From: Eledone cirrhosa | Taxonomy: Eukaryota | NCBI GenBank assembly: GCA_964016885.1 | Contig: OZ024740.1 | Coordinates: forward strand, 166,780,001-166,844,000 | DNA: 64,000 nt | Direction of reading: 5' to 3' | In this document: positions 6,323-61,970 of the stretch, one piece after another | Layout: every line of letters starts with the position of its first letter | Position numbering within the stretch: position 1 is the first letter of the stretch | Made by a program: the position numbers and the translations under genes | Notes under the pieces: generated by a model | Database searches by the model: none | Told to the model about the DNA's origin: nothing | What the model saw: only the letters and a program-made list of their open reading frames with translations

Positions 6323-8123
6323 AGAGTTAAGAATAACGTAAATTAAATACAGAGGTAATTGAAATTAAATATATACATACACGCATCCAAATACGTACAT
6401 ACACAAGCATACGCGAAAACACTCGCCATGGGTATGCAAATACAAGCACGTACACAAAGTCACGCACCAACATACAGAATCCACGCAACGCCTGTACCCG
6501 CACACCCTTACACCAGATACACATGAACAAATATATGTATATAAAATACATATATATATGTGTGTGTGTGTGTGTATACATAATTAAATAAACGTAGATA
6601 AATATACACACGTAAATAGGTATATAACGCGCGCACACACATACCTACATGTAAATACACATAAGTTCGCAGACGTACGTCAACCAAAACACACAGTATA
6701 CATATACACCCACCCACATACGTACGAACCCGCATGCTCACACATACGCAAAACTCACGTATACACCTAACCAAATGCACATGTACCAGTATATATATTA
6801 TATAGGCCATAACATATACAAGCAAACATACTTACGAGAAAGTAGACGTACCTTCAAAAAACATACAGGTAAAATATACTTACCTCTACAAATAAGTAAT
6901 GGTATAAACATAAGCTCCAAAGAAACGTTTCTTACCAGGTTCTTGGTTATGGTGGCAGGATGGTTAGAATGCCTACTTATGTAATTAAGAGTATTATTCG
7001 CCTTTCTATACGGGTATGCAAGCCATTCGACAAATTGAGGGTAACGTCAAGGTAATTAACGACCGAGAAGTTGGCCTCAACCTGTATGGAGGGGTTGAAG
7101 CCTTTATAGCAGGCTGTGTGTTCTTTTCGAACATGTCTCAAGCACGTGGGCCGCACGTTGTCATGGTCAAATGACCGTCATCACGGTACAAACCTCCGCC
7201 CACTTTGTGGAATTCTTCCTTGATAGAGAAACAAAGGAAAAGTCCGATAAGATCAGTAACCTCTGCATAATCGCTGGCGCCCATACTCACGTCGAATGGG
7301 GTACTATTAGATGTTTTAATCCACACAGAGTCGTCGAAATTAATCACCGATTTGCGGGCATTGAGGACGACATCATCTTCGAAATCCTTAACCATTGTGT
7401 GTGTTTTATCGAAATGGATAGCTCTAAGAAGAAGTGGTAAAGTGATAGAGGAGTAGGAATTATTGATGTCGAATTGGATAAAACGGCAATGTTCCTTATT
7501 GCATATGCCGTTAAACCAATCAATCACCGCGAAAGAATTGTCCCACAGTGCAAGAGGGGCCAAACATCTAATTTCAGGTATAATTCTATCTAAAATCATT
7601 TTCCTAAGTCTACCTAAATCGGACTTCATAGGGTTAATAAGCCGAATAGAGGGGTTGTTCGGAAAATGGGATTTGTGATCCATCAGGGTAAAGTGGGGAG
7701 AAACAAGGTCCAGAGGTTCAGTTCCGTCCAGGATGTTGAGATCAGAGGTGGTTTTAAACCCAGCATCGTTGATCTCATTAATGGCGCTCCGATTAGTTTT
7801 ACGGTAATCCTTAGTTACAGCATTATGTAGCAGTTGATGGTAAGTACTGCACTCCACTTGATATAGATTGCCAGTTTTGACGGAGTTGACATGCACGGCA
7901 TTAGAATCCTTAATAGAACACATTCTATTCTTCAGGTCCTGCTAGAAGGAATTGCTCCTGTTCCGAAATGTGATACTCCGTATGAGTCCCAATACATCAT
8001 TTTCGAAGGGTAGCAATGCTGGGTTACTCGGAGGCTTAATATAGGTTTTAAACCCAAATTTATCCTGTTTGTTGTCTACTTTTCCCTGATTATCGAAATA
8101 AAAGGCACGCCAACGCAACCTTT
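6323..8123 (-). mobile_element. Inverted, 5'-truncated and internally deleted Penelope-like element copy
   Basis: 6919-8123 is the reverse complement of about 9180-10345 (ORF 7138-7923: QFDINNSYSSI, MGASDYAEVTDLIG, YRDD). 6684-6915 matches about 11225-11470. 6323-6683 matches 8123-8497. Confidence 0.9.
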
Positions 8124-8514
8124 GACGTACGTCTGCTAACTTATGTGTATTTACTTGTAGGTATGTGTGTGCGCGCGTTATATACGTATTTACGTGTGTA
8201 TATTTATATACGTTTATTTAATTATGCATAGGACACACACACACATATATATATATTTTTTAAATATATATATATATATATATTGTATGCGTATTTGGTG
8301 TATACGTTCGTATGTGTGCGGCTACAGGCGTTTCATGGGTTCTGTATGTGGGGGCGTCTTCTTTTGTGTACGTGCTTGTATTTGCATACCCATGGCGAGT
8401 GTTTTCGCGTATACTTGTGTATGTACGTATTTAGATGCGTGTATGTATATATTTAATTTCAATTACCTCTGTATTTAATTAATTTCTTCTTAACTCTAAA
8501 TCATTCGGTTTCCT

Positions 8515-8790
8515 GAATAGAATTTTAGTCTACGACTTCAGTTATACCATTTACGTAGTTTTGTCTTTGCGTGTAATTGTTCTCACGGCTCCCCATAATG
8601 ACGTATAATCTTCGTTTTTTCGTTCATTGCCAGAGAACGTCTCCATTCAACCATCTAATAGAATATTAGTCTACGACTTCATTTATACCATAAACGTAGT
8701 TTTGTCTTTGCGTGTAATTGTTTTCACCTCACCAAATAATGACATATTATGTTCGTTTTTTTTCGTTCTTTGCCAGGGAACGTTTCCACG
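8515..8790 (+). repeat. Two-copy ~140-bp tandem duplication inside the 5' pseudo-LTR
   Basis: AATAGAAT.TTAGTCTACGACTTCA.TTATACCAT..ACGTAGTTTTGTCTTTGCGTGTAATTG begins at about 8516 and about 8657. Confidence 0.85.
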
Positions 8791-9077
8791 AATCAAAGTA
8801 TCGTCTTCCTGTCTTCCTTCGGTTGCAATTTTTTTTGAAATATTTACTACTGCGTTCACAGATTGACTTTTTTAGTTTCAGAAGATCCCTTAAGGGTGAA
8901 AGCAGCGATTCTTTGCTTAAACTTTAAACTGTTATTTTAATAAATATTTGCTCTACGGTTCTGATATATCTGAAATATATTTGTCCTTATCGAGCCCACT
9001 TTGGATTTTAGTCTTCACATTTATTATTATTACTATTTGGCTCCCTTGGTTGAGCACTCTATTGATTTATATTCATC

Positions 9078-11150
9078 ATGCAGAAACAACATCTGAATAT
9101 TTCTACAAAGAACATACCCGTACCAAGCAGGAAAACATACCTAAAACTCCTTATACAGAAAACAGACGCGTTCATTAAAAGGTTACGTTGGCGTGCCTTT
9201 TATTTCGATAACCAGGGAAAAGCAGACAACAAAGAGGATACATTTGGGTTTAAAACCTATCATAACTCTACGAGTAACACAGCATTGCTACCCTTCGAAA
9301 ATGATGTCTTGGAACTCATACGGAATATCAATTTTCGGAATAGGAGTAATTCCTTCCAGCAGGACCTGAAAAATAGAATTTGTTCTATTAAGGACTCTAA
9401 TGCAGTTCACGTCCACTCGGACAAAACTAGTAATCTATATCAAGTGGAACGCAGTACTTACCATCAACTGTTACATAATGCTGTAACTAAGGATTACCGT
9501 AACACTAATCGGAGCGTCATTAATGAAATCAACGATGCTGGGTTTAAAATCGCCTCTGATCTCAACATCCTTTAATGGACTGAACATCTGGACCCTGCTT
9601 CTCCCCACTTTACACTCAAGGATCACATATCCAATTTTCCGACTTATTAACCCTACGAAGTCCGATTTAGGTAGACTTAATAAGAGGATTTTATATAGAA
9701 TTATACCTGAAATAGAAGTTTGTCACCTCGTGCAATTTTGAACAATTATTTCGCGGTGATTGATTGGTTCAACGGCATATGTAACAAGGAACATTGCCGT
9801 TTTATCCAATTCGACATCAATAATTACTACTCCTCTATCACTTTACCACTTCTTCTTAGAGATATCAATTTCGCTAAAACACTCACAGTGGTTATGGATT
9901 TCGAAATTGATGTCACCCTCAATGCCCGTAAGCCGATGATTAATTTCGACGACTCTATTTGGATTAAAAAATCTAATAGTACCCCATTCGAGGTGAGTAT
10001 AGCCGCCAGCGATTCTGCAGAGGTTACTGATCTTATCGGCCTTTTCCTTCGTTTCTCTATCAAGGAAGAATTCGCCAACGTGGGCGGTGGTTTGCTGCGT
10101 GATGACGGTCTTTTGACCATGACAACGTGCGGCCCACGTGCTTGCGACAGGTTCAGAAAAGAACTGACAGCCTCCTTTAAAGGCTTCAACCTGTCCATAC
10201 AGGTTGAGGCCAACCTCTCGTTCGTTAATTACATCGACGTTACCCTCAATTTGTCGAATGGCTTGCATACTCGTATAGAAGCCGAATGATATGCTTAATT
10301 ACATAAGTAATCATTCTAACCATTCTGCCAGCATAACCAAGAACCTGGTAAGAAACGTTTCTTTGAGGCTTTCCCGTCTATCTACAAATGAGCATATTTT
10401 CAACGACCATTCCACATATTACAATGAAGCTCTTACTCGGAGTGGATTTGTCGATAAGAGTACGAGAATAGACCTAGGAAAAATAGATCCCGACGCATTA
10501 TATGGTATAACCCACCATATAATATGGAGGTGGCCACACCATTAGCTAAGATCTTTCTCTCCCTTATTATGAAGCATTTCCCCCCAGCACATAAATATAG
10601 TAACATATTTAATAGAAATACCATTAAAATTCCTTACTCTACGACTCCTAACCTTGCAAATAACATCACAGCTTCAAATTTAGCTAAATTACGTAGCAGT
10701 AGTAACACGGCAACCATGTAGCTAGTACTAACTTTAATTGTAGGAATCATGTTGACTGCCCCCTACCCGAGAAATGCCTCTCTAGTAACATTGTCTACAA
10801 ATGTAAGGTTGAAACACCCACGTCCCGTAGGGCCTACATAGGGTTAACCGCCAATAGATTCAAGCAGCGTCTTTACATGCATACCCATTCTTTCCTTAAC
10901 CCGTTAAGAAGGAAAATGACATCACTTTCAGCTTATATCTGGAGTCTAAAAGACAACCACACCCAATATAAGTTACACTGGGAGATCCTAGCTTAGGCTA
11001 GATCGTATAACGGAAATAAAAGACCATGTGACCTCTGCGTGGCTGAGGCCCTGGAAATGCCCTATGCCAAAAACCATTCTTACAAAAAAAAAATCTGAGG
11101 CAATTTAGGCTTGTAAACATAAATTGCACAAAACTTTCCTGTATTACAGC
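9078..11150 (+). pseudogene. Disrupted PLE polyprotein: reverse transcriptase + Cys-rich linker + GIY-YIG endonuclease
   Basis: N-terminus KNIPVPSRKTYLKLLIQKTDAFIKRLRWRAFYF; RT motifs FDINNYYSSI and LRDDGL; thumb YISNHSNH...RLSRLS. Manually translated C-terminus NCRNHVDCPLPEKCLSSNIVYKC..AYIGLTANRFKQRLYMHTHSF..TSLSAYIWSLKD..CDLCVAE. Several stops and frameshifts. Confidence 0.9.
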
Positions 11151-11811
11151 CCCACATTATACCCTAACGGATAGTACGAACTATACGCGGATATTTTACG
11201 TTTTGATGTTGTAGCTAAGTATCTGTTATGTTTATACCATTAGATATCTGTATAGGTAAATATATTTTACCTGTAGGTTTTGTTAAGCTATGTATACTTT
11301 CTCGAACGTATTTTTGCTTGTATATGTTATGGCGTATATATTATATATACTGGTACATGTGCATTTGGTTAGATGTATACGTGAGTTTTGCGTCTGTGTG
11401 AGCATGCGGGTTCGAAAGTATGTGGGTGTGTGTATAAGTGTACCTTGTGTTTTGCTTGAAGAACTTATGTGTATTTACATGTAGGTATAATTACATGTGC
11501 GTTATAATTATCTTCGTTTCTTTCCGTTGTTTGCCAGGGAACGTTTCCACGAACCAAAGTATCATCTTCCTGTCTTTCTTATGTTTCAATGTTTTTTTAA
11601 ATATTTACTTTTGCCTGCACAGATTGACTTTTTTAGCCACAGAAGATCCCGTTAAGGGTGAAAGCATTGATTTTTTGCTTAAATTTTAATCTGTTATTTT
11701 AATAAATATTTGCTTTACCGTTCTTATATATCTGATATATATTTGTCCTTATCGAGCCCCCTTTGGATTTTAGTCTTCAAATTTATTATTATTACTATAC
11801 ATATTTTCTTC

Positions 11812-12143: not shown

Positions 12144-12171
12144 CTGTGTATGTGTGTGTAAGAAAATGAGT

Positions 12172-12369
12172 TTTTTTTTAAATAAAAAAACAGGTGTCCT
12201 ACGTCCTACACGAGTGAAAAAATAAGGAAAAGAAAGCGAAATAATGCAACTTGAATCTTTTTAATAATATTTATTTCTTGCATTTACCGGACTGCGAAAC
12301 CGGGTAAATGAAACAAATAACAAATAAGTATTCTTCAGAAGACTCAATTTGCATTTTCGATTACTTTTT

Positions 12370-12372
<3 letters not shown>
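12172..12372. mobile_element. Fold-back element, same family as about 30700-30975 and 61510-61800
   Basis: Shared GTCCTACACGAGTGAAA, TTTACCGG / CTGCGAAACCGG-TAAA and TTGCATTTTCGATT motifs; arms are inverted. Confidence 0.7.
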
Positions 12373-16468: not shown

Positions 16469-17099
16469 TGCAGCAGATGTTCTTGTTTTCTCTTGTTTGA
16501 TTAGCCTCAAGAAACTTTACGTCCAAAATCATTTGATTCGTAAATATCACGTGTTTCCCCCGGACATAATGTATCAAGAACTTCAATATCATATGTGTAT
16601 TCACTTTACTGAAGACGATACTTATTAGCGAATATTATTAGCCTATCGAGACACCTTATATATAACATCCTCCCTTCATTCCATAATAGTAAAGAGATAT
16701 TTTCATTAAAAGTAAAAAGAGCAAACAAATCAGAAAAAAGTCTAAAACAACAACTTACATTGATTTCTCATAAAAATGCAGGATGTTATCAAGTAAGCCA
16801 TTTTCTGTATGTAAATGTGGATCTTATATATTATTAAATGGAGTAATTGTAATTCGAATTAAGCATGCTGTAATTGGAAGAACACAGCACATTTTCAATT
16901 TAAACCAATTGCTGTTAAGCACGGTGTAATTATATATACGCGCTATTCCATTCATGTACGGCGATATAATAATTATATATTTTGTTTTATCAACATAAAT
17001 GTTCTTTAATATCTATGAGTGAATGAATCCGGAAAATGAGATCGTAAAAGAGTAAATAAAAGAGCAAGAGAGGTTATATGTCTTAATTCGTATGGTGAG

Positions 17100-19550
17100 C
17101 AAATGTGGTCCCACGTGCTGGCCTCCCCACAGCCCCGGCGGACAGAATAGAGAAGGCGTTTCCCAGAGGGATGGAAACGGAGATGCGGCTGGCCAGCTCA
17201 GTGCCTATGGTGGTGAATAGGGAGGTAGCCCTAGAGCCAAGGACACCAGAAGTCTCCACTGCCAAGGGCACGACCATGAACGTGTCGGAGAGTGACCGGG
17301 ACTTGGCGAGTTTGGCCTCGTCAACCCGCCGTGCAGCAGTACCTGGGTTAGTCGCAGACAGCATCAGGTTGTGGCCTGAGAAAGTGTCGCTGCAAGTGGC
17401 ATCCCAGACGAGTGGTTTGTCACAGCGGAACAGGAAGATGGTCATACCGTCTGGCCTTTTGCCGTCCTCTCTGTCCAACCACAACGGTTCGAGCTTGGAG
17501 AGGAAGCCTGGAATGTCCAAACCATTATTTATGACATCTTTGAGGGCAGCATGGCGTTGAAAACGGCCGGCACTGTCGCAACAGGAAAGCAGGCGGAAGC
17601 CGAAAGAGTCCACGGTTGATCCGTAGCGACTGGAGGCCGAAAGCGTCCACTGTGGATCCACAGCGACATTTATGTGGCTCGCAGATCCAGAGTCCAAGCC
17701 TGAAGGAAACGCCGATGCGCAGGCTATCGTTATCCAGCTGCGTGCCAGTGGAGAAGGAGGGCAAGGCATGGAGCAAGCTCCACTGTGGGGTTTGGAGGCA
17801 GTGCTGGTCGAGATGGCACATGACCAGTCTGAGGCCAGGCTGCACTGGAGTGCATCCCAAATGTTTTTTTTTGGGGGGTTGGGGTCTTGACGTCAGTAGA
17901 AGAAGGAGAAGGAGAAGGGACATTTACTGGGCTAAGTCACAGCCGGTCCCACGTCCGTAGGCAGCCTCACGTTTCCTGATCACAGAGGATTCTATTTGGC
18001 TTTGGAGAACCCTACTGACGAGGACACTGCATGAGGTTACCGATGAAAGAACAGCTGGCAAAGCCATTGAGATCGGGGATCCGTGATCAAGGCCGCCATA
18101 TCTGACAGGTATCGAGGTCAGCGAGGAGAGATGCGTGGCTGTAGCAGGGAGCGCTGTGAAGGGTGTAGAAGAGCTTCGGCATGGTGTAGCAGTTCCCCAA
18201 CAGAAACAGAGCTGGGTGATATTGATCAAGCCCAAACGGCTCGTAAAAGCCTTCAGTTGCTGGAATCTGGACCTGAAGGTGGAGCGGATGGCTGGTAGGT
18301 GGATCGGTGACCCGAGAATGAGGACATCCTCTTTGGGGGTCACCTGTACCTGGTGGATAATAGACCGCATGACCGCATGTCCGAGACAGTGGCTGCAAAG
18401 CTCACAGCATCATGGCTGACATTCACCACCACTGACTTGGACGAGTTGACCTGTAGGCCGATTCCCGCCAGGGCAGGAACCACGAAATCATCCAGATACG
18501 AAACGTTGAGAGAGGTCGTCATACTCCGAGCAAAGTTTTCTATACTAAGGGAAAGCAGGAGGACGCCTAAACGGTCGCCCTGTTGGACCCCAGTGGCTGA
18601 AGTTATGACTTTATCAGCAGCGTGGAGAATGCTCGGGTCTCCATATGACAGGTAGGCCAGCGGGTATTGGAGGGGGTTCGGCTGAGGCAGGCAGCAGAGA
18701 GTAGATGGTCTCAGCGTATGTAGTTAAATGCATTCCTCATGTCAAGTTTGACAATAAGGTGCCTGGAGTCATTGGATGCCGGTTCTGGTGGACAGCTGTT
18801 GAAGAACTGCTTGCTTGCATGTGAAGACCCCCCCCCCCACAGACACCGGACACGCTGACACCCAGTTGCACCGAACTGAACTCCTCACCCAGTTTAGTTG
18901 TTATGGACCTGCAGACCACCTTAGCAGCGAGCCTCCGGAAGACATTGCTCACAGCGAAGGGGCATATGCTACCCTCTTTCTTTCTAAGAGCGGTCAGGCT
19001 AGCCGAAAAAAATAGACCATGGGCGTGAGGGTCCAGGGCCTAATGGATAAGCCTATTGGTGAGTGCCACAATTGCACTAAGAAGGCCGCGCCCGGTCTCA
19101 GTTAATGCCAGAGCTGGGGAGGCCGAGGGTTAATGGGGAGAAATAGAAGAGGCGCTCCCAGTCGCTGGCTCGATTGGAGTCCAGGGAACTCTCAATCGAG
19201 GAAGAGACGGCATCGGCTAACGGCACCCGGACCGTTCTTTGGGTCTTGAGCGGAATCATCCGGAGGCGCCTGAGCCGAGCGATGATGACCAGCGAGGCTT
19301 GGACATCAGGCATGCTCTAGTGGTGTGCCAGACGGCCGTGGCTGGGCAGACGAGGGGAAGAGAGAATTTCTCCAGCTCCACGCTGCAAGGGCACTGGAAG
19401 CTGGACGCGTCAAGCCAACTTAGGTGAGGTGGTGGAAGCAGCCGCACCCCGAACAATTCCGGCTCCTCTTCCGTCTGGTCCTGGTGCTGCAAGTGCTGCA
19501 GTTGTCGACTTGTGGGAAGGAAGGTGGGGCGTTGTCACTGTCTGCCAACG
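17100..19550 (-). mobile_element. CRE-clade-like non-LTR retrotransposon relic (RT + Cys/His knuckle + restriction-like endonuclease)
   Basis: Fragments NVFRRLAAKV, QLGVSVSG, KLDMRNAFN, SATGVQQGD, YLDD, CRCG..VDAFG..LLSC..AGRFQRH, EDGKRPDGMT..LVWDATCSDT, PLAVETSG. GC-rich; frameshifted. Confidence 0.85.
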
Positions 19551-26933: not shown

Positions 26934-26999
26934 TATAGTACAGTATAAATGAGTACTGAATATATATATATATTCAGTACTCATTTATACTGTACTATA
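26934..26999. repeat. Perfect palindrome centred on (TA)n
   Basis: TATAGTACAGTATAAATGAGTACTGAA-(TA)n-TTCAGTACTCATTTATACTGTACTATA. Confidence 0.9.
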
Positions 27000-27480: not shown

Positions 27481-28309
27481 TGTAGCAATGTGGCTAGTCA
27501 GTGTGGTAACTACTTCTGATCAGATCCGAGAATAGCCCTTAAAAGGACTGTTATCGCATACGGTCTGATTGGATCTGAGGGTAGCCCTTAAAAGGACTGT
27601 TGCCACATGCGGTAAGGATGAACAGACGAAAGCACAAGTTGAAAGGACGAGCAAAGCGAGAGATTAGTTTCGGTCAGCTATTTATTTCCATACATGAAGC
27701 GACGATACAGAGGTACAAGGCGTGTGTGAGTGACAAGCGTGGCAGAGAAGAGGAACAACGATACGCGAGTTGACTCTGCCAAAGGTCGACTGGTGAAAGT
27801 GTTTGGAATCACTCTATTTATACAAAAATAATCGTTTGATATTTAGCCGCTGCGTAGGCGTTTTATTTTGGTGGCTTTAAGAGTTGTTTGTTTCACGGTG
27901 AGGTAGCAAGCTAAGCAGATAGATGGAGCTGTTTATTTCACAGATGTTATTTCCGGTGGCTGTACATTAGCCCACTACCAGATCTTTTGTACAACAAAAC
28001 AGCGAAATATCGTATAGTAATGAATCAGCGGTGCATTTGTCATGATAATAGCCCAAGGAGTGTCTAGCACGTTGTGAAGTTTGGTGATCATCGAGTATAG
28101 GACAGAGTCGATGTAGAGATATGGCAAGATGTGTGTCAGGAAAATACAATAAAAAAAAAATAACTCCCTCACGGTAGAGTAACCACGGAAGTATAGTGAC
28201 TGCCTTCAAACAAACACTATATACACTTCCAGTCAACCTTAACACCCTTTGTAGCCTCTGTATCATATTAATATCCCCCTCCGCCTTGTGAGATATTTTA
28301 CCTGCTACA
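27481..28309 (-). mobile_element. Solo-LTR-like segment
   Basis: Termini TGTAGCA...TGCTACA (7-bp inverted, TG..CA). On the minus strand TATAAATAG (27814-27822) is followed by AATAAA (27681-27686). No clear target-site duplication. Confidence 0.55.
27583..27598 (-). promoter_or_regulatory. Histone-mRNA-type 3' stem-loop (second copy at 27534-27549)
   Basis: Minus strand CAAC-AGTCCT-TTTA-AGGGCT-ACCC: 6-bp stem, 4-nt UUUA loop, ACCC 3' flank. Duplicated with 49-bp period. Confidence 0.55.
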
Positions 28310-28600
28310 AGGGATTTAGTCCCCTTTCTTGACCGTGGTATCTTAAGTGATAGAGATTCCCTCGGCCTTTTTGAGATTTTCTCGCAAACTACGGACGTGT
28401 CTAGTTAGCGCCCTTCCCTGAGGTGCTCCCTTGAAAAGGTGGCTTACCTCACAACAATGTTACATCTCTATGATATAAGATTTTTGCATAGTGACCAGCG
28501 AAACTGTACAGTCGGGACATTAAAAAATAGGTATATATTTGTGTCTATTATTTCTTCTTACTTTATAATATTTTATATATATTATATATATATATATAAT

Positions 28601-28884
28601 TATTTAATGTATAATAAATAATACAATATAATTACCTCATTACCAGAGATTTCCCGAATAAGACTGATACAAGAAATGTCGGCATTCGTTCGTCAGACAA
28701 GGCAATTTAAAACATAGTGAAATATTTTAAAAATCTCCTTAAGAAAGGAGGTTTTTCAAATATTTCACTATGTTTTAAATTGCCTTGTCTGACGAAAGAA
28801 TGCGGACATTTCTTGTACCCGTCTTATTCGGGAAACCTCTGGTAATGAGGTAATTATATTGTATTGTTTATTATACATTAAATA
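28601..28884. repeat. ~284-bp near-perfect palindrome with a hammerhead in each arm
   Basis: Arms pair from the centre CTCCTT-aaga-AAGGAG outwards to TATTTAATGTATAATAAA / TTTATTATACATTAAATA. Confidence 0.95.
28780..28853 (+). ncRNA. Type I hammerhead ribozyme motif (mirror copy 28632-28705, minus)
   Basis: Stem I TTGCCTTGT/ATGAGGTAA, CTGACGA, long stem II, GAAA, stem III CC-tct-GG, GUA triplet. Confidence 0.8.
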
Positions 28885-28948
28885 TATAGCTCAGTACCTT
28901 ACATAGAGGACTCTTCATTCCTCTGACTTTTGCAACGGAAACTTCAAC

Positions 28949-28990
<42 letters not shown>

Positions 28991-28993
<3 letters not shown>

Positions 28994-29064
28994 GATATTA
29001 ACAAATGGAATCTATATTTATAAATATAGTTTTATAAATATAGTTTCCATTTGTTAATATCGTA
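28991..29064. repeat. Palindrome from the family at about 43172-43430 and 60490-60620
   Basis: TACGATATTAACAAATGGAA.CTATATTTATAAA / TTTATAAATATAGTTTCCATTTGTTAATATCGTA. Confidence 0.85.
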
Positions 29065-29347
29065 TGTTTACTCCAAATACTTGTTGAGTGCTATATATCA
29101 ATTATAAAAATATTTGCTTTTTGTATCCCAACAATTTAAATAGAACTTTTGCATATATATATATATATATATATATTTCGTTTCTGAATTGGTTTAGCAA
29201 TATTCTTTATCTAAAAACGTGTGTTGAAACCGATATTGTTATACTTTAAGAGGGTCATGTTGCCAATAAGAAACATACCCACCAATTGCTTTCACATCAA
29301 TTTATTATACATTTCCGGTTGGTTGGTTTTTTTCCACAAGCGAATGG

Positions 29348-29868
29348 TTGTTCATATATTGTCAAAGTTCTTTTGTCACACAGTATGTGACCTCTTCAGT
29401 GACTGGGGGTTGCTTTCTTTGCTTTGCGCCTCTCCTTTGTTCTGTCCTACGCCATCTTGTTTGTGTGTGTGTTGTGTGATTAATTTGCGCATGTGTTACA
29501 TCCGGGTGTCTGTAGGTCTTTTTATTTGTTTAATTATTTGTTTATTTACATGTTACTAGTTAGTTGTTTGTTCTATGTGTGTGTTTTCATGTTGTCCTTA
29601 ATTGTAAGTTGTGATATTGCTATTCCATTCATGTTTTCTATTTAATTTTGGTTGGAGTTCATTTATGTAAATAAACAAATATATAAACCAATAAAAACAC
29701 ACACAGACACTCGGATGTAACACATGCGCAAACTAAGCACACAACACAGACAAAAACAAAATGGCGTAGGACAGAACAAAAGAGAGGCACAAAACAAAGA
29801 AAAGCATCCCCAGTCACTGAAGAGGTCACAGAATGTGTGACGAAAGAACTTTGACAATATATGAACAA
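29348..29868. repeat. Fold-back element with ~200-bp arms, hammerhead in each arm
   Basis: 29348-29551 is the reverse complement of 29664-29868. A third copy lies at about 31060-31260. Confidence 0.9.
29813..29855 (+). ncRNA. Minimal type I hammerhead motif (minus copies 29361-29403 and 31104-31146)
   Basis: GTCA-CTGAAGA-G-GTCACA-gaatg-TGTGAC-GAAA-GA(A/G)C-TT-TGAC. Confidence 0.75.
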
Positions 29869-29950
29869 TATATATATCGGAGCTCAGCCGTCGGTATTCT
29901 AAATATTTTCATATATATATACATATATATATATATAAAAGTATGTATAT

Positions 29951-30620
29951 GTGCATACATATATGTATACATACGTACAGTAGTATGTATATATATACAT
30001 ACATGCACACATATATATATGTACGTATGGATTTACTGAACATTTATTATAATGCTCGGTGTGTTTGTAAACCATCGTTGCCCTTTTGTTCCACACTAAC
30101 AAAGCTACGATGAACTAGTTTCAAGCTTATTAGCTATTGTCAGCACCGTATACCTTACTGCCAGATGATTGAACGTCTGAAAGTATATACTTTCCTTATG
30201 CATATTAACGACTGAGAAGTTTCATTTTGTTCATTTTTTCCGTCTATCGTTTTCGGTGCGCCCGGCCGATGATTAACTCACTCGATATGCAAATTGGGCT
30301 GCTCAGCCGTTAATATGCATAAGGAAAGTATATACTTTCAGACTTTCAATCATATGGCAGGAAGGTATACGGTGCTGACGATAGCTAATAAGCTTGAAAT
30401 TAGTACATCGTTCCTTTGTCAGTGTTGAACAAAAGGGCAACGATGGTTACTAAAAACTGTACGGCTTAATTCGGGATGTTTGTTTACAAACACACCGAGC
30501 ATTATAATAAATATTTGGTGAATCCATACGTACATATATATATATATATGTGTGCATGTATGTATATATACACACACTACTGTACGTCTGTATACATATA
30601 TGTATGTACGTATGCATACT
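29951..30620. repeat. Fold-back element with ~270-bp arms, hammerhead in each arm
   Basis: About 29951-30216 is the reverse complement of about 30302-30620; the right arm has a short insertion near 30449-30480. Confidence 0.9.
30370..30410 (+). ncRNA. Minimal type I hammerhead motif (minus copy 30108-30148)
   Basis: CGGTG-CTGACGA-T-AGC-taataa-GCT-T-GAAA-(C/T)TAG-TA-CATCG. Stem III is the palindrome CTAG in the minus copy. Confidence 0.8.
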
Positions 30621-30699
30621 TATATTTAAGTAACAGCCGTACCAAGAGTGAGAAATGACATTTCATTTCATTTTTTCCGTTTATATATATATATCAGAA

Positions 30700-30975
30700 A
30701 TCGATTTTTTTTAGAAATGAAAAAAAAACGAGGTGTCCTACACGAGTGAAAGTATAAGGAGAAAAGATGTAATAAAAAGTGCAGCTGCAGTCTTTTTTTT
30801 ATATATTTATTTGGTTCCTTTACCGGTTTTGCAGTTCGTGTGCTTTTCAAAAGTACAAGAACTGCAAAACCGGTAATTTTGAAAAGCACAAGAACTGCAA
30901 AGCCGGTAAAGGAAGCAAATAAATATATTTAAAAAAAAAAGACTGCAGTCCCATTTTCGATTTCATCTCTTTTCC
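30700..30975. repeat. Fold-back element carrying degenerate U3-A8-type hammerhead motifs
   Basis: Inverted arms about 30755-30853 and 30878-30975; homologous to 61510-61800. Confidence 0.8.
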
Positions 30976-31308
30976 TTTTTTTATTGGGGGGGGGGGGGGG
31001 GTCTCATGTTGTCAATAAAATAACAAGCACCTGATGGTTTCACTTCATATTATTATAAGTTCCTGGTTTGTTCGTTCGATAACCGGAAGGTTGTTTATAT
31101 ATTGACAAAGCTCTTTCGTCACACATACTGTGACCTCCTCAGTGACTTGGTTATTTTGCGTGTCTCTACTTTGCTTGATTCTATACCATTTTGATTTTGT
31201 GCGTTGCATGCGCAAAATAAGCTCGCAACACACAACACACAAAAACAAATATATCTGTAAATATATATGTATATATATGTACATATATATAATAATATAT
31301 ATATAACA

Positions 31309-35592: not shown

Positions 35593-35744
35593 TAAACAAA
35601 TAATGAATAAACAATGAAACAGTTCCTTATATTAAACAAAAAAAGTTCATTATTTAACGATCGTTTCTAGGATATATATGTGTTAGAATTGGCATGCATA
35701 TTCAACAGATCTATTTATCTACATATATATATATATATATATAA

Positions 35745-36150
35745 TATATAAGATCAAAAGATGTTTAAAAGAGTTCCATGTATTTTATTATAAGCATTTC
35801 AAAAACAAATATCATCATGTAATAACATTTGTGTTTTCATCAGATAAAATAGGAAGATATGAAGGTTAAAAAACACTTGTGGATAGTGCAGTTTTAAATC
35901 AACATATCAACTGCACTATCCACAAGTGTTTTTTAACCTTCATATCATATCTTCCTATTTTATCTGATGAAAACACAAATGTTATTACATAATGATATTT
36001 GTTTTTGAAATGCGCATAATAAAATACATGGAACTCTTTTAACCATCTTTTGATCTTATATATTATGTATACTCCAGTCCTACAAACTGTAGAGTGCTTC
36101 TTATCCGATATCTGCATTGCTTTATTGTACTACAATAAAACTTACCTCCT
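35745..36150. repeat. Fold-back element with ~150-bp arms, hammerhead in each arm
   Basis: About 35745-35893 is the reverse complement of about 35910-36061. A solo plus copy lies at about 62400-62660. Confidence 0.95.
35956..36026 (+). ncRNA. Type I hammerhead ribozyme motif (minus copy about 35781-35851)
   Basis: Stem I TATTTTAT/ATAAAATA, CTGATGA, stem II AAACACAAATGTTATT..AATGATATTTGTTTTT, GAAA, palindromic TGCGCA, AUA triplet. Confidence 0.85.
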
Positions 36151-36229
<79 letters not shown>

Positions 36230-43048: not shown

Positions 43049-43176
<128 letters not shown>

Positions 43177-43214
43177 ATATTAACAAATGGAAACTATATT
43201 TATAAAACCATATT

Positions 43215-43280
43215 TATTTCATTATACACATTTCAAGGGCCACCAAGGTAAACTATGGTGCGCTTTCATCAGATAAAATA
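43215..43280 (-). ncRNA. Type I hammerhead ribozyme motif
   Basis: Reverse complement TATTTTAT-CTGATGA-AAGCGCACCA..TGGTGGCCCTT-GAAA-TGTGTA-TA-ATGAAATA. Confidence 0.75.
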
Positions 43281-43434
43281 TAAAATAGGTTAGTTTTATA
43301 AATAAATATTGACATACCCTTAAAAAATGCAACCATTCTTGTTAATATATTGTATATTTGTTGAGTGCTTTATATCAGTTATAAAAATATTTTGCTTGAT
43401 GTATCCCAACAAATTAAATATAACCTCTACATAT

Positions 43435-43903: not shown

Positions 43904-43908
<5 letters not shown>

Positions 43909-44365
43909 GAAAGGATGAATATAAAATGAAAGTGCTTTTGTTAAAAAAGGAATTTATTAGGTATTGACATATGTTTCTGTAACAGACCGAATACCTATGT
44001 ATCGCTGCTTGCGTAATCATATAATGTTAGCAAGTATTCGATAGCAAATGTATAATCAGTTGTCACTTCTTCAGAGATTTTGGATAAACTGGATAAAATC
44101 AGAAAAATTGAAGTATTTATATTAGTAAAAGAGGAAGGAACAGAGGGGATAGAATATGACAGATGGTAAAATAATTTACTGCTAAACAAGTATATAATGG
44201 GTTTTTAATGAGAATACCATGAGTAAATCTAAATAAGAATTTTGGGAGTGCCGATTTTAATCTCTACTTGACCAACTGGACAGTGGACAGGGCTGGTCAT
44301 TTGGTGCAGTAGTATTAATTTTTTTTAACAAAAGCACTTTCATTTTATATTCATCCTTTCTACAT
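43904..44365. repeat. Element bounded by 45-bp perfect inverted repeats, containing a minus-strand hammerhead-like core
   Basis: 43904-43948 is the reverse complement of 44321-44365. Minus strand about 44078-43963 reads CTGAAGA-A-GTGACA..(~75 nt)..TGTTAC-A-GAAA-CATATG-TC; stem I is poor. Confidence 0.75.
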
Positions 44366-53789: not shown

Positions 53790-54200
53790 GTCATTCGGGT
53801 TAGACCAACGTTTCGCTTCTTTCGGATCTGTTGTTGATTGGAGATTCCAGTCGTTTGATCAAAAGTGCTTCCTTGATCCTTAGAGTTCGAATGGTATCAC
53901 AGTGACAATAAGATGTCTGTCCTTGTTTCCATATTTGGTTACATATTTCCGAAATGACAAGACTCTAGTGCTAACGTGCTCCTTGATTCGTATTTGCAGC
54001 GGTCGGATGGTGTTGTCAATGTAATAATCTTTGCACTTGTTACACTCGGTCTTATAAACCACATAAGTGCGCAAGCACTTATGTGGTTTATAAGACCGAG
54101 AGTAACAAGTATCCTTCCTGTTTGGTGTATCAGGCAATGGCTGATGTGGCCAGTATTATCTCGGTGGGACCAATTGGATATTGAGACCTCCCCTTTGTTC
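53790..54200 (-). mobile_element. GIY-YIG endonuclease relic of a second Penelope-like family
   Basis: CLRTYVVYKTECNKCKDYYIDNTIRPLQIRIKEH then, after a stop, IKEALLIK..PIN. The VVY-x-CxxC-YI(G) layout differs from the 10730-11100 endonuclease. Confidence 0.75.
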
Positions 54201-61399: not shown

Positions 61400-61509
61400 A
61401 ATATATATATAAATATATAAATATATATATAAATATATAAATATATATATAAATATATATATAAATATATATATATATAAATATATATATAAATATATAT
61501 ATATATAAA

Positions 61510-61800
61510 TATAAAGAAAAAGAGATGAAATCGAAAATGCAACTGGAGTCTTATTTTTTTTTTAAATATATATATTTATTTGGTTCCTTTACCGGTTTCG
61601 CATCTGAGATGTAAGAAAAACCACAGACCCTCCATCTAAACTCACCTTTTGAAAAGCAGAAGAACTGCGAAACCGGTAAAGGCACCAAATAAATATATAT
61701 ATTTTAAAAAAAAATAAGACTCCAGTTGCATTTTCGATTTCATCTCTTTTTCTTTATACTTTCACTCGTGTAGGACACCTCGGTTATTTTTCATTTTGTA
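61510..61800. repeat. Fold-back element in (TA)n with hammerhead in the right arm
   Basis: About 61510-61601 is the reverse complement of about 61666-61758. Confidence 0.9.
61645..61682 (+). ncRNA. Minimal type I hammerhead with U3-A8 covariant core
   Basis: CCTT-TTGAAAA-GCAG-aagaa-CTGC-GAAA-CCGG-TA-AAGG: stems I and II perfect, palindromic stem III, GUA triplet. Confidence 0.8.
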
Positions 61801-61819
61801 AAAAAAACCCTCACTTTCT

Positions 61820-61970
61820 AATATATAAATATATATATATATAAATATATATATATACATATATATATATATACATATATATATATAAATATATATATAT
61901 ATAAATATATATAAATATATATATATACATATATATATATATAAATATATATAAATATATATATATACAT

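Follow-up and report, generated by a model that had tools for sequence, protein, structure and literature searches.

Head-to-head Penelope-like fold-backs with a one-sided tail in Eledone cirrhosa are consistent with priming from both ends of a break

The window analysed here, a 64,000-nucleotide stretch of the Eledone cirrhosa contig OZ024740.1 and part of a 3.0-Gb assembly, contains five adjoining inverted repeats (E1 to E5) embedded in (TA)n. An initial annotation had described five adjacent palindromic elements, each with the minus-strand copy as its left arm and the plus-strand copy as its right arm. Indeed, self-comparison of the window returned the inverted repeats at about the positions first given, mapping on genome copies agreed with it, and the polarity was confirmed in all five. 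The boundaries had been drawn in about the right place, but each element was too short by an unpaired tail on one arm; mapping on other genome copies shows this extension to be 55–100 nt long and to run to (TA)n. The corrected bounds are 28602-28950 (E1), 28992-29146 (E2), 29177-29868 (E3), 29939-30684 (E4) and 30696-30978 (E5), and the arms, with one separate neighbour, are as follows.

28602..28748, minus strand: E1 left arm; 3' end without a tail, hammerhead core at 28696-28641; matches genome copy L055 at 94%
28746..28950, plus strand: E1 right arm, with its core at 28789-28844 and a tail over roughly 28885-28950; family corresponding to the 3' UTR end of a GIY-YIG Penelope-like element (PLE)
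28992..29024, minus strand: E2 left arm; tailless, truncation downstream of the ribozyme; family shared with 43173-43430
29020..29146, plus strand: E2 right arm; tail about 29066-29146, 89% to L258
29177..29668, minus strand: E3 left arm; last ORF codons 29668-29600, 3' UTR, mutated core 29399, tail about 29235-29178
29665..29868, plus strand: E3 right arm; intact core 29817-29851, early end at an AACAA|TA site, tailless
29939..30227, minus strand: E4 left arm; ~428-nt retrozyme monomer, tailless, core mutated
30210..30684, plus strand: E4 right arm; core 30375-30405, tail about 30622-30684, a repeat of the monomer start
30696..30855, minus strand: E5 left arm; degenerate core, with the tail at roughly 30760-30696; family corresponding to the 3' UTR end of a PLE that has a CX4CxxC linker
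30874..30978, plus strand: E5 right arm; tailless
31004..31204, minus strand: single E3 relative, separate and diverged (77%); intact core from 31142

Four of the elements had been credited with a hammerhead motif in each arm, which holds for E1 but not for the others. By descriptor scan, each arm of E1 has an intact CUGANGA/GAAA core (28696 minus, 28789 plus), with an A-G mismatch at the base of helix II. In E3 and E4 the core is intact in the right arm only (29817 and 30375) and mutated in the left, E5 has the 3' half only and a degenerate core (CAGAAGA in the family, CACAAGA or TACAAGA in the window copy), and E2 has no core because its truncation lies downstream of its family's ribozyme. 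Motifs fitting a type I hammerhead, with a CUGANGA/GAAA/UH core and helices I-III, occur in E1 (left and right arms), on the right side of E3 and E4 and in the arms of a further family, E6, but not in E2 or E5; cores decay freely in single arms. When isolated, the motifs folded weakly (z -2.3 to +0.1). No hammerhead family appeared among the best 150 of 244 Rfam matches, which consisted solely of miRNA-like low-complexity matches and one tRNA-like match. In 450 kb of sampled sequence the descriptor returned 44 cores, compared with 1.7 after shuffling. The density in the sample L202-L246 is about one core per 10 kb, spread over many families, and extrapolates to roughly 280,000 genome-wide. We also observed CAGAAGA replacing the CUGAAGA core in several copies of two unrelated families (window 8879-8901 and 11640-11663; E5), and such cores are either dead or a variant hammerhead.

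The same design had been reported elsewhere in the window, and this was partly borne out. Cores are present in both arms at 35745-36061, but at 43172-43430 there is only one, in the left arm. The sites 12172-12372 and 61510-61800 are fold-backs of the E5 family, but their cores are degenerate, and 43904-44365 has the inverted ends but only a single incomplete core. In the PLE at 6323-11796 the reading frames do diverge; its left arm, however, lacks any ribozyme-like motif, and the two pLTRs have CAGAAGA..GAAA only. The remapped features are these, with no strand assigned to an element as a whole.

35743..36165: E6-family fold-back with a core in each arm (35843 minus, 35964 plus); right-hand tail
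43173..43430: fold-back of the E7 (= E2) family; the left arm is long, lacks a tail and has core 43272, and the right arm is short and tailed
61507..61825: E5-family fold-back; right-hand tail
12150..12372: E5-family fold-back, diverged; left-hand tail
6323..11798: decayed PLE; a partial copy inverted on minus (6323-8123) and a plus-strand pLTR-ORF-pLTR unit with the direct repeat 8746-9036 / 11507-11798

Several other features of the window were recorded alongside. The stretch 43905-44364 combines 44-nt perfect inverted ends with a non-palindromic interior and one incomplete core, and small near-perfect palindromes without a hammerhead core, at 26934-26999 and 54035-54110, are possibly of the same kind. 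An abundant SINE-like repeat of ~180 nt lies at 1203-1420, with about nine further copies (19661, 23090, 23472, 24312, 24894, 27053, 32919, 47671, 51330, 55183) and a tRNA-like Rfam match (46 bits) at 1130-1201, just upstream of the first copy. Decayed GC-rich RT-like frames on the minus strand at 17083-18723 are probably a non-LTR element; the one frame tested had no Pfam match.

For each of six families, the 30 best loci were compared. The initial annotation had proposed an origin from PLEs, as opposed to MITEs, and had suggested a search for ORF-bearing PLEs with the same ends. Such elements are present: RT/GIY-YIG frames lie upstream and in the same orientation in E1, E3, E5, E6 and one E7 locus. 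The end of the ORF was found in 13 of 30 E3 loci, 52-68% identical to the uninterrupted 1,137-aa RT/GIY-YIG frame of locus L172 (RVT_1 at E 3e-5; atlas RT/GIY-YIG clusters at 0.97), and the E3 left arm in the window still encodes the last ORF residues. For E5, GIY-YIG scored above the cut-off in 4/4 extended loci. E1 (L035, L040, L168) and E6 (L125, L134, L138) each run upstream into GIY-YIG frames in three loci, and in E1, E5 and E6 a UTR of 1.0-1.3 kb separates the 3' end from the GIY-YIG frame. The E2/E7 family is linked to an RT/GIY-YIG frame in one locus only, L282. Pfam found neither an RT nor a GIY-YIG domain in seven whole frames, but isolated domains did match. A CX2-5CxxC linker is visible by eye in relatives of E3 and E5, and any Neptune or Penelope/Poseidon clade label is a lead only. 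The proposed PLE origin is thus supported, with E4 as a retrozyme (see below), whereas the description of the class as short non-coding elements is not, since E1, E3, E5 and E6 reach RT/GIY-YIG frames in other copies.

The upstream extent shared among copies varies continuously from 0 to 1,497 nt, while the outer 3' ends cluster at two positions per family and are then followed by (TA)n, a sequence in which any target-site duplication would be hidden. Fixed outer ends, variable inner junctions and insertion in (TA)n had all been anticipated. The variable upstream extents and the two 3' end positions mark these copies as 5'-truncated retrocopies and not MITEs, and, judged by their sequence, E1, E2, E3 and E5 are 5'-truncated 3' ends of RT/GIY-YIG PLEs, with the E2 link provided by one locus. 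The E4 family differs: its units are spaced 422-432 nt apart (a ~428-nt monomer), carry a type I hammerhead and occur in tandem in 7/30 loci; a search of 1.5 kb upstream in 30 loci found no PLE frame linked on the same strand. E4 fits, and looks like, a non-autonomous non-LTR retrozyme. In run X4, which has another species label, pieces of E1 and E3 were present and none of E2.

We then turned to polarity across the genome, where a count of divergent against convergent pairs had been proposed as a check. Within 300 nt, an exact 14-mer core common to E6, E7 and their kin formed 6,711 pairs in divergent and 120 in convergent orientation, a bias far beyond chance; only about 100-140 of these nucleotides were usable in the convergent search, which may have raised the ratio as much as threefold or so, but not fifty-fold. 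Reversed-pattern controls of this pair search gave 0. E1 core pairs were divergent in 41 cases and convergent in 1, and the neighbours within 10 kb of the first 100 of 792 E1 cores, a count free of window bias, were divergent in 13 cases against 1. Sampling at round coordinates (45 pieces of 10 kb each, 450 kb) yielded 153 inverted-repeat rows, of which 12 bear a core (about 10 elements); 12/12 of these were divergent. At least 15 of the 50 convergent pairs listed join two different families, as assessed by eye, and are thus chance neighbours. Both the polarity and the head-to-head design are known PLE anatomy and not new.

A stricter regularity emerged at the outer ends. The tail is present on exactly one of them in 111/114 pairs from six families (E1 49/51, E3 6/7, E4 14/14, E5 13/13, E6 15/15, E7 14/14), the loci being best-scoring copies and pattern matches, not a random draw. 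For the first five families (97/100, after removal of 5 duplicates and one edge pair, with outermost ends scored) the binomial p is 2.6e-25 against 0.5, the ceiling for independent arms; three duplicates were removed for E7. Three pairs break the rule (L041, L169, L013), and all five array elements obey it. Among single copies, an inverted tail lies upstream of 22/53 tailless but only 2/40 tailed ones; the remainder (31/53 and 38/40) have none in the available flank, and many single copies run past it. Folding of the tails gave small hairpins and no shared structure.

Either arm can be the longer one. Of 100 pairs, 92 span <1.3 kb, and 74 of those are single-tailed with a junction that could be placed to within 40 nt; the longer arm is the tailed one in 22 of these and the tailless one in 30, and in 22 the arms are equal. 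Arm lengths are modestly coupled, with 45/74 pairs within 20 nt as compared to 29 after shuffling, and 19/45 as compared to 14 (p 0.036) for loci found by one arm; later central deletions could change arm lengths. In 9/21 mapped cases the tailed arm stops inside the tail, so that the arms do not overlap; a tenth candidate, L252, was left out because a deletion had caused it to be mis-scored and its arm reaches about +20. Most junctions show 0-6 nt of overlap or small fillers, many fall on short self-complementary words, and E1 core-to-core spans vary from 33 to 196 nt (41 pairs). At E6 junctions there is a truncation hot spot at CATATG, and the many perfect palindromes centred there are the most MITE-like copies.

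The two arms of an E1 pair belong to the same subfamily: subfamily variants agree between arms at 30/33 locus-sites and differ at 3/33. Variants confined to a single locus are in one arm in 79/83 cases and in both in 4/83, pointing to little later conversion. In E5 and E6 the variants present in both arms (5 vs 5.6 expected, and 3 vs 2.4) show no excess among few pairs, and arm concordance is clear in E1 only. Arms diverge by about 4-9%, each with private variants. Separately, we noted a very young head-to-head PLE pair at L172:1060-8920 (G000:C1:337.76 Mb), with arms of 3,826 nt that are 99.7% identical, each containing an uninterrupted frame of >1,100 aa with an Asn-rich insert like those described in the available text of PMC3846280. 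This pair sits inside an E1 pair, and the one-tail rule holds for both.

Priming from both ends of a break, as the initial annotation had suggested, is likely, and is now backed by the one-tail rule. We lean towards a more specific form of it, in which each fold-back is one PLE insertion and the two cut ends prime at different RT start sites flanking the tail. The GIY-YIG endonuclease would cut both strands in (TA)n; one 3' end would prime from the tail's distal boundary and the other from the start site preceding the tail; and both cDNAs would end early, their free ends being joined via 0-6 nt of microhomology. One start site per cut end would yield divergent polarity, a single tail, a longer arm on either side and tail-only arms. 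Less certain are the steps in which both cDNAs are made from one RNA, with distal reverse transcription either stopping short, to leave a tail-only arm as in L1 twin priming, or displacing the other cDNA, to give overlapping arms and hence a palindrome. That the process is such a single-RNA form of twin priming seems to us somewhat probable: one RNA with strand displacement best explains the one-tail rule together with the coupled lengths and the shared variants, although the evidence comes from fixed insertions, with which one RNA and two RNAs of the same locus are both compatible. It is possible, and we put it forward tentatively, that PLEs integrate by default through twin priming from two fixed sites of a single RNA.

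An alternative is that two RNAs are involved, the ends priming either on separate molecules that an asymmetric protein dimer holds or on two repeat units within a tandem transcript, each of them engaged at one start site. A dimer is predicted in the available text of PMC11167929, overlaps of up to 3.8 kb (L172) would demand long displacement on one RNA, and 3/33 diagnostic sites do differ between arms. Two RNAs would, however, need an extra asymmetry to yield 111/114 one-tail pairs and would not by themselves predict coupled arm lengths or tail-only arms, and we consider this reading unlikely. We are similarly doubtful of self-priming, or snap-back, in which one strand folds back and is copied as the second arm, the endonuclease then trimming one tail. 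It would account for the short palindromic words at junctions, for near-equal arm lengths above chance and for arms of the same subfamily, but it requires the copied arm to lie inside the first, whereas the tailless arm is longer in 30/74 and the tailed arm in 22/74 pairs; with the tailed arm lacking any overlap in 9/21 cases, later deletion would have to account for all the misfits.

The remaining explanations fare much worse. Short length, a non-coding appearance, TA flanks and the 44-nt perfect inverted ends at 43904-44365 all recall MITEs or foldback DNA transposons that bear ribozyme motifs by chance, and Tc1/mariner elements have TA flanks. Here, however, the ends are unequal, with a 55-100 nt tail on one in place of identical TIRs, length, interior and junctions vary where uniformity would be expected, about half of the best copies are single-armed, and the families continue into RT/GIY-YIG frames. 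Such an origin has next to no probability in our view, and for E1-E7 the MITE reading was ruled out by the asymmetric ends and variable junctions. It is also very unlikely that the pattern reflects an assembly artefact, palindromes formed later from solo copies or the selective removal of convergent pairs. No contig or RAD-seq read spans 28300-29900, where genome-wide copies pile up, and many of the opposite-strand joints among reads and contigs placed there stem from the palindromic reference itself; yet 4-9% arm divergence, private variants and asymmetric ends would not come from an artefact, and at least 15 of the 50 convergent pairs listed, being of mixed family, are chance neighbours.

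If both ends of one break prime as proposed, the polarity would be a by-product of integration and not a function, and the ribozyme a passenger marking the 3' end. Folding predicts that a read-through transcript of E1 forms a single hairpin in which the ribozyme is paired throughout (-207 kcal/mol, z -34). As the arms diverge, transcription entering from either side would meet the antisense arm first, and this arm is predicted to mask the ribozyme by construction in read-through transcripts from both. With at least 6,711 hairpins for one 14-mer, these elements may be a large source of dsRNA. Short PLE fold-backs in (TA)n would also tend to be misfiled as MITEs. Should the default-route proposal be correct, one mechanism would lie behind both the tail and the inverted copy and would cover autonomous PLEs as well as retrozymes, and thousands of MITE-looking hairpins would be retro-derived.

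Published work already describes inverted PLE copies arranged head to head with one pLTR tailed (PMC3846280, PMC8557442), and the structure is thus known; what is new is a counted rule that makes its mechanism testable. In the available text of PMC3846280, head-to-head is the most frequently observed arrangement and is explained by self-priming on an antisense template, while that of PMC8557442 repeats the structure, reports targeting of (TA)n and attributes the tail to resolution by the EN, with the mechanism described as undefined; both treat the origin of the inverted copy and its one-sided tail as an open question. We found no one-tail count or two-site model in the literature searched, older key papers and supplements lying outside that search. 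As far as those two texts go, EN+ PLEs share with our elements the head-to-head copies, 5' truncation, a single tailed pLTR, (TA)n, a terminal-repeat ribozyme and an RT with C-terminal GIY-YIG. They differ in that most copies here are <300 nt and MITE-like, the tails are 55-100 nt and not 30-40, and pairs number in the thousands, so that the rule and the arm geometry can be counted. The PLE protein Poseidon_Ac cuts and extends both strands of AT-rich DNA in vitro and has two RT start sites bounding the tail, with a predicted dimer (PMC11167929, available text); that text mentions no strand difference in start site and no inverted-copy model, whereas here the two ends of one insertion appear to use different sites. 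The near-exceptionless rule in six families would tie these two in vitro start sites to the two ends of one insertion.

E4 resembles the animal non-LTR retrozymes of bioRxiv 10.64898/2026.07.22.740005 in its tandem ~428-nt monomers, type I hammerhead and lack of a linked ORF among the loci compared, but differs from those described in the available text in its head-to-head pairs, which obey the one-tail rule in 14/14 cases; in that text 'inverted' occurs only in one reference title, and 'tail' and 'orientation' do not occur. The one-tail head-to-head pairs of E4 point to PLE-type integration. In L1 twin priming, reportedly described by Ostertag and Kazazian in 2001, both target ends are said to prime, with 3' ends outward and microhomology at the junction, at an internal site that is variable and in segments that do not overlap. 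Our elements are alike in the priming of both ends, the outward 3' ends and the microhomology, but unlike in having a fixed second site and, usually, overlapping arms; non-overlap of the L1 type holds for the 9/21 tail-only cases, while most pairs overlap. The proposed PLE route works like L1 twin priming, but it is not L1 twin priming.
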